Positions 32,958 through 42,812 of a stretch of DNA of 64,000 nucleotides are shown one piece after another. Numbering within the stretch: position 1 is the first letter of the stretch; every line of letters starts with the position of its first letter. Made by a program: the position numbers and the translations under genes. This DNA comes from Callorhinchus milii. Its lineage: Eukaryota. The notes beneath the pieces are model-generated. The model did not search any database. It saw only the letters and a program-made list of their open reading frames with translations, and was not told the DNA's origin. The DNA is taken from the NCBI RefSeq assembly GCF_018977255.1, contig NW_024704761.1:2232001-2296000 (forward strand). The letters run 5' to 3'.

Positions 32958-35900
32958 ATGGCGGGGAAGGAGCCGCTGTTGGGAGCCGCTAAAGGTGAGT
33001 GTGGACGGAGCCCCGTGTCTCCCCCCCCTCCCCCCCCACCGACAGCTCTCACCCCCCCACCCACCCACCCACCGGGTGCTGGTCTCCTTTCAGACAGCAG
33101 CCTCGGGCTGGACGCTTTCCCGGTGCCACCTGGCGGCAGCCTGGGGCGATGCCCTGCACTGGGCAGGGGGGAGGCAGCAGCTGGGGCTGTGGGTGGGTGG
33201 CGGGGAGCAGTCGGTGGGGGCAGTGGCGAGTAGCAATGGGCAGTGGGTGGGGGCAGTGGTTAAGTGGCAATGGACAGTGGTCAGGTGGCAATGGGCAGTG
33301 GTTAGGTGGCAATGGGCAGTGGGTGGGGGCAGTGGTCAGGTGGCAATGGGCAGTGGTTAGGTGGCAATGGGCAATGGGTGGGGGCAGTGGTTAGGTGGCA
33401 ATGGGCAATGGGTGGGGGCAGTGGCGAGTAGCAATGGGCAATGGGTGGGGGCAGTGGTTAAGTGGCAATGGGCAGTGGGTGGGGGCAGTGGTTAGGTGGC
33501 AGGGGTCAGTGGCAGCGGGCTGGGGGCAAGGTGGCAAAGGGCTGGGGCCAGTGGGCGGGGGAAGTCAGCAGTGCCTTTCACGTGGTAGGTCGTGTTAAAG
33601 CGCTCCCCGGTGCTGGTGGAGAGAGGAAGATGATTGAAAGAGCAGCCGGTGTAGCCGGGGGAGGGAGCAGCCGTGGCTGAAAGCTCTCCCGGATGGGGTG
33701 AGTCGGGTTGGGACATGAAGCCTCTGCCTGGTTTGGAGATACTTATACACAAGAATGGTTATGGCTTTCGGCATCAGTCAGGCTTTCGGCTGACCAAAAA
33801 TAATTGCTGAATGCTATTCCTCGCTCACAGCGGTAATAATATTCACACTGAGTACTTTGTGCCACAGTTGCAATGATTAACTTCACAGGTCACCCTGCCT
33901 CTATCCCAAACTGTGTTGGCAGGAGTCAAGCCATTATAACTTGAGTCAAAGTGGACTTGATGTATAGATTTCCCGTAAACAATCTCTAAAGAAAATCACT
34001 GATTTAAGTTTGAAGGGGCATGAACCTTCTGTGATACAGGTGACACAATGGCATTCGAGATGTTGAGTGGCACAGTTGAAGGCTGACCGTTGGATAGAGT
34101 AGAACACAAGTCCCACAAAGAACCCATGGCACTATACAAAAAGGGAAGGGAGTTTCTCTCTCTCCCGGTGTCCTGGACAACAATCCCCAAATAAAATTGG
34201 TCACTCAATCCATGGCTGCTTGTGTGCCATTGCTGTGCGCAAAATGGCTGCTGTGTTTTGCCCATAAAATACACGGTCACTCTGCGGTACATCTGTGAAG
34301 CGCTTTGAGACTGCAATGACATGATAAGGTGCTATAATCAAATGCAAGGATTATTATTATTATTTTATAATTATTATCTGGCCTTCCTGTGTATGTCTAG
34401 CCTGACTTAACAATATAACATTGCAGACTACTCATGCTTTTGTTTTACAGCTTGCATTATGAAACTCCAGGCAGAAAGTAGCCCTATCATGGATCGTAAT
34501 CCCAATCTCAACCCCTTCTGTGATATCCTGGAGCTCATCTTCAGGAAGGGAATCCGGCGTGAGTAGGATTCTTCTATATAATTTTGTTTGGTCAGCGGGT
34601 TGTCATGTGGAAACCCATGGTATTTCCATTTCCCATACCAGCTATCCTTTGGGTTGCTAATTTAGTTCCAATTGGTTTAGTTCTAAATATGGTTAGTTTA
34701 GTGAGCTGTAGCCCAAGCAACTGGGTTGAGACTGCTCCCAAATAACNAAAAATAACATCAAATTGCATTGATGCTAGAGCGCTTGAGGACAAGCACAATA
34801 GTATAATGGAAACATCAAATATACAGTGCCTGTCAAATATACAGGAGGATGTTCCAATGCGCTGGACAAATAATTAGCCCCGAAGCTGGGGGTTGGATTC
34901 AGGAGCGGGTGGGGGCCAAGGGAAGTGGGGTGGGAAGATGACCAAAGGCACGGTCAAAAAGGAAGGTCTTGAGATGGACCTTGAAGGGACGCGACGAGAT
35001 AAATGGACTAAAGTGCTATTATAAAAAATAATTTGTAAGATGCAAATCAGGCCAAAGAGAGGATGTTTTCATACCTGAGTTTGTTGATTTAGGTTGCCAC
35101 CAAGTTCACGGAAATGTAGACTGAGTTATGATCGCCCTGCTGTTTGTTCTCTTGTTGCAGAACCAGTTCTTGGTCTGAAGAGGAGAGATTACTGGCACCT
35201 ACTGGAGCAGCTGGCACACCATCATTCCTGTGGCGAGTACGTACACCTGAAGTATTCTGCACTTAAAACAATCCACCTATCAGGATAACAACAACTTGCA
35301 TTTATGTAGTGCCCTTCACACGGGGTAGCATCCCGGAGTGTTTGAGGACAAGCACAATAATCTCATGGAAAGAGGAGTCTTTTAATTTACTTTACTATAT
35401 TTCTCTGTAAGAGCTCAGGAAAAACTACCCTGCCACATCAGGGAGGAAGAAACACAGCACTGGAGCAATGAGATGTCATGAGTGTCTGTGCTGGATGAAT
35501 TATCTGTTTCAGATGAAGGAGAAGGTAATGAGTCTCTACCCTTCATGAGGGGCTATATAAATGCAAGTTGTTGTAACAATGAGAGGCTTTGGTTAATCAT
35601 TGGAATTTGAATTATTTTCCTGTTATGTTGCTAGGCTGATCCAACTCACCGTAGCATTGGAGAAAACCATTGCAAACAAGAAGACGCTGACACCACAAGG
35701 CCAAGGGCGGTACTTTATCCGACTGGCTCTGAACCAGAAGAGCTTGGCAACTACGATCCGACATCTACTGCACACACCAAAGCTCTCAGAGGTACTTCAT
35801 CACATCCACGCTTCACAGATTGTTTCTCCACAAGCCTCTGTTTATCTAGCAATAAGTAGGAACCCGGTTGTTAGTCGATTGGCGGATCGCTTTTTGGGGG

Positions 35901-41900: not shown

Positions 41901-42812
41901 CTTTATTTCAGGTCCTGTTCCATCATCACTACCCTGAGATCTCCTCTGTGGGACATCGAGTGGATAAAAGGACCCTTTTTGCTTACTGTGTGGCGTAAGT
42001 GGGGAACTTTAAAGAAACCTTTTGCCCAGGCAGATAATAATAATCCTTACATTTGATAACAACTTTATATAGCGTCCTTCATGTAGGATAGACTCTGAGC
42101 ACTCATCAAGATAGGGTCGAACACCAAATGAGACAGGAGTAACTACAAGTGCAGTCGAAGAGGTAGGCTGTTGGGCAGGATTTAAAGACAGATAGAGAGT
42201 AATGGCATAGGGGCAGAGTTGTTCCAGAGGTTAGTCGTGTTGTAGTTGAAGGCTCAGCCACTGATTTACCAGATGTAGTAAAATATAATTACAATTATTA
42301 ATAAGAATCCTTGATCTGAAGCAGCACCTTATATTGTTGAGATGTCTTAAAAGTGCTTCATAAGATACATTGTGAAGTTTATTTTGTGGCTGAACATTAC
42401 ATTTTTAAGAGGATGTTGCTTTATTTCAGCGACAGCCCAGAAACACCGCACACGTGTTCTTTTATCTGCTTGGTGTTCGAGACAAAGTCAGAAAAGGATG
42501 CTGATGAAATTATCATGAGAATAGGTGAGTGTATCAGGGGTTGGATTTACCTCATTTTCTTCCCCACGTGCACAGGCACGATGAGCCGAATGGCCTCCTC
42601 CTGCGCTGTAATATTCTACAATTACAATTATACGTCATACAAGAGAGGGAGAGGTTTAAGCCAGTAGGAAAAGATCCTATTGGGAGCTTCAGCCAGTCCT
42701 GTGCAGTCCTACACTGGGAGCGTTGCCGATACCTTTGAGGTGAATAATTGTAAGTCTTGTTCTTTTAATATTTCCAGCTGCAGGGTTCAGACACACGGAG
42801 TGGTTTGTGTGA
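32958..42812 (+). CDS. Uncharacterised RUN + PDZ + PTB domain adaptor protein, ~428 aa
   Basis: 16 GT-AG, phase-consistent exons: 32958-32994, 34451-34558, 35161-35236, 35635-35791, 36626-36671, 36864-36922, 37349-37384, 37960-38012, 38379-38511, 39182-39378, 40124-40169, 40813-40878, 41364-41423, 41912-41994, 42430-42524, 42778-42812. RUN blocks [54 protein letters not shown]...[27 protein letters not shown]-like LRYLGQV...HYPEISSVG...FAYCV...CLVFET...EIIMRIAAGF. AATAAA at 43029-43034. Confidence 0.88.
33211..33530. repeat. G-rich minisatellite (GGGCAGTGGTTAGGTGGCAAT-type units) in intron 1 of the RUN-PDZ-PTB gene
   Basis: Repeated GGCAGTGG / GGCAATGG / GGTGGGG modules. Confidence 0.9.
34050..34372 (+). 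mobile_element. Longer Deu-domain SINE copy
   Basis: Contains CCCATGGCACTAT...GGAGTT...CCCGGTGTCCTGG...GCTGTGCGCAAAATGGCTGC, resembling the DeuSINE core, then the shared (ATT)n tail. Confidence 0.75.

Follow-up and report, generated by a model that had tools for sequence, protein, structure and literature searches.

An undescribed, animal-wide family of RUN-PDZ-PTB proteins and its possible role as an endolysosomal cargo-sorting adaptor

Here, we describe a gene that encodes a compact protein with RUN, PDZ and PTB domains, in a 64,000-nucleotide window of the Callorhinchus milii genome (GCF_018977255.1, contig NW_024704761.1, positions 2,232,001 to 2,296,000, forward strand; coordinates below are those of the window). 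The gene model is already present in RefSeq and UniProt as uncharacterized; what is new is that it belongs to an undescribed, animal-wide family built from known modules. We propose, with a probability of about 50%, that this unnamed protein is an endolysosomal cargo-sorting adaptor that is recruited by a small GTPase, probably Arl8, and that docks through its tail on a PDZ partner scaffold.

Results

A single-copy gene encodes a protein made of RUN, PDZ and PTB domains

Joining exons by coordinate from their splice signals gave a gene of 16 exons (32958-42812, plus strand), in which all 15 introns are GT..AG. The spliced coding sequence of 1287 nucleotides (428 codons and TGA) has no internal stop, and its product is letter for letter XP_042198272.1 (UniRef V9KX02), recorded as 'uncharacterized protein si:ch211-250n8.1 isoform X1' of C. 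milii (LOC103175640). The gene occupies one locus in the C. milii genome and is single-copy. A first-pass annotation, made from the sequence alone, had proposed 16 short exons splicing into a 428-residue frame and had pointed to a teleost model, si:ch211-250n8.1. The intron borders and the identity to XP_042198272.1 bear out the frame, and the name it gave is that of the identical C. milii product.

The same annotation had read the product as an uncharacterized RUN-PDZ-PTB protein, and every approach recovered this architecture. Pfam placed RUN at residues 35-161 (E = 5.7e-16), PDZ at 189-245 (6.5e-9) and PID at 330-416 (5.4e-5) of the 423-residue isoform, all above cut-off. RUN, PDZ and a Dab-like PTB were also found with PDB profiles, an AlphaFold model (predicted local distance difference test score, pLDDT, of 89) and structural alignment, and the three domains account for the whole modelled chain. 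The RUN (PF02759) and PTB/PID (PF00640) domains each combine a Pfam score above cut-off with the expected fold, and the PDZ domain combines its fold with a hydrophobic-G-hydrophobic carboxylate loop. Both the RUN-PDZ-PID order and the full-length identity place the protein in the si:ch211-250n8.1 orthologous group. A 34-row tree of its relatives agrees with the vertebrate groups, and the four unnamed proteins in it group with chimaera, teleost, frog and chicken members.

The orthologues LOC417372 (chicken) and LOC100486003 (X. tropicalis) are likewise recorded as 'uncharacterized', and some database records bear automatic names (RUFY4, RUFY1-like, PLEKHM1, FYCO1, tensin-like, TBC1D4) that reflect a single domain. 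In a literature check that left most subscription journals and supplements outside its reach, we found no paper naming the gene under five database identifiers and, among the matches listed, none describing the RUN-PDZ-PTB order.

The RUN domain retains basic positions of Arl8 effectors

The RUN domain is nearest to those of FYCO1, SKIP and PLEKHM1 (approximately 22-23% RUN identity to the PLEKHM1/SKIP/FYCO1/RUFY4 group), and its alignment to PLEKHM1 covers profile positions 4-174, including an N-terminal helix and a post-RUN segment. Arl8b binding is reported to need H60, R117, R119 and R123 in PLEKHM1 and R92 and R94 in SKIP (PMC5379943), and RUFY1 is reported to use the same RxRAWL arginines (PMC9597352). 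By profile alignment, the four PLEKHM1 residues correspond to family positions 45, 97, 99 and 103; a constant nine-residue offset fits all four, and also H63. Among vertebrate rows, these positions hold K or R in 77/77, 74/77, 77/77 and 77/77 cases, respectively. Across 58 distant rows, the counts of basic residues are 55, 57 and 57 at positions 97, 99 and 103, respectively, and only 28 at position 45. The family residues are K45, R/K97, R99 and R103, of which C. milii retains three, with Q97; the basic residues of the Arl8-effector RUN proteins PLEKHM1, SKIP and RUFY1 are therefore present, three of four in C. milii. The trafficking-adaptor function suggested by the first-pass annotation is plausible and narrows to an Arl8-type RUN surface, with binding as a prediction from these residues.

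A PDZ groove, a Dab-like PTB and a conserved C-terminal tail

The PDZ carboxylate loop (L186-G187-M188) keeps its glycine in 45/45 and 56/59 rows, with hydrophobic flanks, and because of this conservation the PDZ groove is likely to be a working one; its ligand class cannot be read from sequence. The PTB domain groups with those of the adaptors ARH, GULP, Numb, AIDA-1 and Fe65. Its F421 is nearly invariant, as is a glycine after strand 5. Independent models of a beetle and a chordate member superpose over 353 residues with a template modelling (TM) score of 0.69.

The best-conserved segment of the protein is its last six residues (0.98, versus 0.66-0.80 for the domains), which the first-pass annotation had overlooked as a PDZ-ligand-like tail. 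C. milii ends in E-W-F-V-stop, and an aromatic-x-hydrophobic-stop pattern recurs across animals, with the motif retained in Trichoplax H2. Among 202 proteins, the vertebrate tail motif sits at the C-terminus in 139/139 carriers; of the representatives that bear the helix-end motif, 52/53 terminate four residues on. Position -2 is W, F or Y in 42/47 representatives, and position 0 is V, L, M or I in 44/47. The final three residues are of low confidence in both monomer models. Nectin-1 ends in EWYV, which the EWFV tail resembles, and the class II PDZ-binding consensus is described with it (PMC2712996). With a free C-terminus and an X-hydrophobic-X-hydrophobic pattern, Sycon being the exception, the tail fits a predicted class II PDZ-binding motif.

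The likeness to nectin-1 also suits a signaling scaffold at the plasma membrane or at junctions, with Rap or Rab35 in place of Arl8 as the RUN partner and with the tail anchoring the protein to PDZ scaffolds of the afadin, Par3 or CASK type. We regard this as possible but rather improbable, since the best RUN matches are the endolysosomal/autophagosomal effectors FYCO1, SKIP and PLEKHM1, and the resemblance to PLEKHM1 extends to both segments that flank RUN.

A predicted GTPase-recruited sorting adaptor

In the cargo-sorting mechanism that we favor, a GTP-loaded small GTPase, most likely Arl8, would recruit the protein via RUN to late endosomes or lysosomes. There, PDZ and PTB would grip C-terminal and NPxY-type motifs, respectively, in receptor tails, and a partner scaffold would hold the protein by its C-terminal EWFV through a class II PDZ domain. 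The overall logic would be that of SNX27, made of different parts. In a bolder form, which we consider possible but rather improbable, the family would belong to the ancestral trafficking toolkit of animals, single-copy from sponges to birds, as an Arl8-recruited counterpart of SNX27, sorting receptors with PDZ motifs and NPxY motifs at late endosomes or lysosomes and linking them through a nectin-like tail to polarity/junction scaffolds; it would never have been named because it was lost in the mammalian lineage.

Several points call for caution in reading the RUN surface and the tail. RUFY3 is reported to carry the RUN motif and yet to bind Arl8b through another region (PMC9597352), and, according to a review, the structure of a RUN domain is not enough to define its GTPase partner (PMC7431699). 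Moreover, the Sycon protein carries a similar motif at an internal position, and on superposition the tail coincides with the end of the last ARH and Fe65 helix. The last two observations would also suit a tail that does no more than complete the PTB helix along the peptide groove, in an endocytic RUN-PTB adaptor akin to ARH and GULP, with the divergent PDZ mainly structural; the PDZ Pfam score falls under cut-off in 4/10 orthologues. Nevertheless, a helix end requires neither the near-fixed stop nor the hydrophobic last residue described above, and the PDZ loop is conserved, so we consider this structural role for the tail quite unlikely.

It is somewhat less improbable, though still doubtful, that the tail occupies the PDZ groove of the protein itself, either in cis or between copies in a homo-oligomer, until a GTPase or cargo opens the protein. 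A precedent exists in Mint/X11, an animal-specific PTB-PDZ-PDZ adaptor whose conserved C-terminus is reported to autoinhibit PDZ-1 (PMC11405698), and the beetle/chordate superposition suggests a fixed domain arrangement. However, in the deeper model the PTB helix extends to residue 425, leaving three free residues, which is short for reaching a groove in cis, and the low model confidence of the tail also speaks against such autoregulation.

Comparison with known adaptor families

PLEKHM1, PLEKHM2/SKIP and FYCO1/RUFY4 share the N-terminal RUN type, and the Arl8b-type basic positions are kept across the unnamed family. Unlike them, the C. milii protein is a compact 428 residues with PDZ and PTB at its effector end. 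Pfam gave no match to PH, FYVE or C1 domains at E 0.1, and we rejected membership in the PLEKHM or RUFY/FYCO1 families, as the PH and C1 (PLEKHM1), PH (SKIP) and FYVE (RUFY, FYCO1) domains that follow RUN are all missing.

SNX27 (PDZ-PX-FERM) is reported to be a metazoan adaptor that unites binding of small GTPases, PDZ-motif cargo and NPxY cargo (PMC8083963). Where SNX27 has PX and FERM, the unnamed protein has RUN and a Dab-like PTB. There is no Pfam match to PX or FERM, and RUN, PDZ and PTB take up the modelled chain; membership in this family was rejected, and SNX27 is a functional analogue at most, not a full-length homologue.

Like the unnamed protein, Mint/X11/LIN-10 is an adaptor of animals that combines PTB and PDZ with a conserved peptide at the C-terminus, and language-model features placed Mint closest among the other clusters (score 0.78), which is no more than a lead. 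By contrast, the unnamed protein has the reverse domain order, one PDZ and an N-terminal RUN; because its single PDZ precedes the PTB, with no PTB followed by tandem PDZ domains, Mint/X11 membership was also rejected. Compared with ARH/LDLRAP1, GULP1/CED-6, Numb, AIDA-1 and Fe65, its PTB is C-terminal and ends the chain, and where Numb and AIDA-1 have A-P or A-Q after strand 5, it has the nearly invariant glycine.

The family spans animals, and mammals are absent from its hit lists

Full-length relatives occur in a sponge, placozoans, cnidarians, molluscs, arthropods, a tunicate, lampreys, sharks, bony fishes, amphibians, reptiles and birds. The first-pass annotation had called the adaptor old, which stands but understates its age, as there are members even in sponges and placozoans. 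When representatives at 50% identity were searched with a profile, 110 of the best 150 matches had E 1e-30 or better. We looked up 20 of these, of which 6 were unnamed; the 14 with names came from lampreys, bivalves, crabs, Acropora, damselflies, a mayfly, mirid bugs, Sycon, Hydractinia, Trichoplax, two beetles, Styela and one protist. The protist match, the nearest non-animal one seen, is to the RUN domain only, in a 1098-residue Diphylleia protein with RUN-like segments. The Atlas contributed a further cluster, mostly of flatworms.

A query with the shark protein returned, in the best 120 of 326 clusters, sharks, rays, ray-finned fishes, coelacanth, lungfish, amphibians, reptiles and birds. 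A second query, the PDZ region of a turtle protein, was picked so that mammals should outrank fishes; its best 120 of 219 clusters ran from reptiles to birds (including chicken LOC417372) and amphibians and on to coelacanth and a shark. Mammals were absent from both sets, which had no mammalian positive control, and from the 20 clusters that we looked up, the 14 named ones included. Among 146 representatives, a stretch with at least 60% identity to a jawed-vertebrate group is present in 42. For 41 of these the nearest group is birds, reptiles, amphibians or ray-finned fishes, and the remaining one, a short fragment, is ambiguous. These mammal-free hit lists support as probable the loss in mammals that had been suggested from the sequence, and we think it very probable that the gene was lost in at least therian mammals. 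As the absence rests on protein hit lists and no mammalian genome was searched, the loss is likely rather than proven.

Gene structure and transcripts

Contigs from 4 of 13 listed runs, in 2 studies, provided the splice evidence (Table 1); their RNA nature is presumed, yet they are spliced. They supply the junction support that the first-pass annotation had named as a check. All four runs have contigs that splice out introns 8 and 15 at GT..AG, and the join of exons 1 and 2 is present in two runs. Two contigs cover exons 2-9 and exons 8-16; the spacings between their listed pieces, 194 and 172 nucleotides, match the combined lengths of exons 5-8 and exons 11-13, respectively. Database isoforms of 423 and 408 residues are consistent with use of an alternative exon 11 donor and with omission of exon 13, respectively.

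Table 1. Features of the RUN-PDZ-PTB gene and its upstream spacer.
Feature	Position	Strand	Remarks
Spacer, GC-rich	32777-32957	.	GALK1 start at 32776 (minus) to RUN-PDZ-PTB start at 32958 (plus); ~180 bp, head-to-head
Exon 1	32958-32994	+	Start codon, first RUN helix; join to exon 2 in 2/4 runs
Exon 2	34451-34558	+	RUN; K45, counterpart of PLEKHM1 H60; contig support
Exon 3	35161-35236	+	RUN; contig support
Exon 4	35635-35791	+	RUN core, basic positions 97, 99, 103; Pfam RUN E 7.1e-6 for the exon alone
Exon 5	36626-36671	+	RUN; contig spacing
Exon 6	36864-36922	+	Last RUN helix; contig spacing
Exon 7	37349-37384	+	RUN-PDZ linker, residues 162-173, strongly conserved
Exon 8	37960-38012	+	First PDZ strand and D-L-G-M carboxylate-binding loop
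Exon 9	38379-38511	+	PDZ core; Pfam PDZ E 5.6e-8 for the exon alone; intron 8 join in 4/4 runs
Exon 10	39182-39378	+	End of PDZ, extra helix, variable linker
Exon 11	40124-40169	+	First PTB strand; alternative donor at 40154 would account for the 423-residue isoform
Exon 12	40813-40878	+	PTB; contig spacing
Exon 13	41364-41423	+	PTB; missing from the 408-residue database isoform
Exon 14	41912-41994	+	PTB strand 5 region
Exon 15	42430-42524	+	Last PTB strand and C-terminal helix; intron 15 join in 4/4 runs
Exon 16, coding part	42778-42812	+	End of PTB helix, then E-W-F-V (42798-42809) and stop; predicted class II PDZ-binding motif
AATAAA, probable polyadenylation signal	43029-43034	+	Contigs reach 43009-43156

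Low-depth contigs continue from exon 7 into intron 7 (37357-37900), where the frame stays open for approximately 90 codons; either a retained intron or unspliced RNA could account for them. The introns also carry copies of a highly abundant short interspersed repeat, with high contig depth, at 34200-34380, 35880-36070, 36980-37140, 39680-39850 and 40950-41010, and intron 1 holds a G-rich tandem array of short units (33230-33510).

Genomic neighbourhood and promoter

The gene is flanked by GALK1 upstream and H3.3 downstream, both on the minus strand. Its head-to-head arrangement with GALK1 had been overlooked by the first-pass annotation. The interval 32778-32957 is 77% GC with six GGGCGG boxes, and contigs reach approximately 32796-32808 on the GALK1 side and start at 32944 on the other, so that their ends are less than approximately 150 bp apart. 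A bidirectional promoter common to both genes is likely in C. milii. In the assembly, GALK1 exon 1 (32583-32776, minus strand) is 194 nucleotides long and out of frame with its own start codon. Contigs of two runs have one additional base behind 32740, and the frame break is therefore likely an assembly error. The last exons of a xylosyltransferase-like gene (24675-26268, plus strand), which we take to be XYLT, converge on the GALK1 3' end.

H3.3 (45194-45619, minus strand) contains an intron and carries the A-A-I-G signature; its probable polyadenylation signal, near 43400, lies approximately 370 bp from that of the RUN-PDZ-PTB gene, and a tandem-repeat array lies upstream of H3.3 (46950-47510). 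Beyond H3.3, UNC13D-like exons, both C2 domains included, were identified by eye at 50985-63561 (minus strand). We agree with the first-pass annotation that the link to UNC13D is positional only. GALK1 and H3-3B are presumably adjacent in human, where we also take UNK to sit between H3.3 and UNC13D; by eye, no UNK-like exons were noticed in the approximately 4 kb from H3.3 to the last UNC13D exon (46700-50985). A genome-wide association study preprint names GALK1, H3F3B, UNK and UNC13D together, with no map (10.1101/683367).

Discussion

RUN effectors and cargo adaptors have been studied mainly in mammalian cells, and a family absent from mammals would escape that field. The same architecture, a GTPase-effector module joined to two cargo-reading modules, has persisted since early animals. 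The family is small and single-copy, and R99, R103, G187, F421 and V428 are precise, testable positions. It offers specialists in membrane traffic and gene loss a testable orphan, with no new chemistry and a function that we infer. If it does sort receptors at endolysosomes, it would add a pathway to zebrafish, Xenopus and chicken that mouse and human apparently lack, and this would bear on comparisons of trafficking between model organisms and on mammalian losses.
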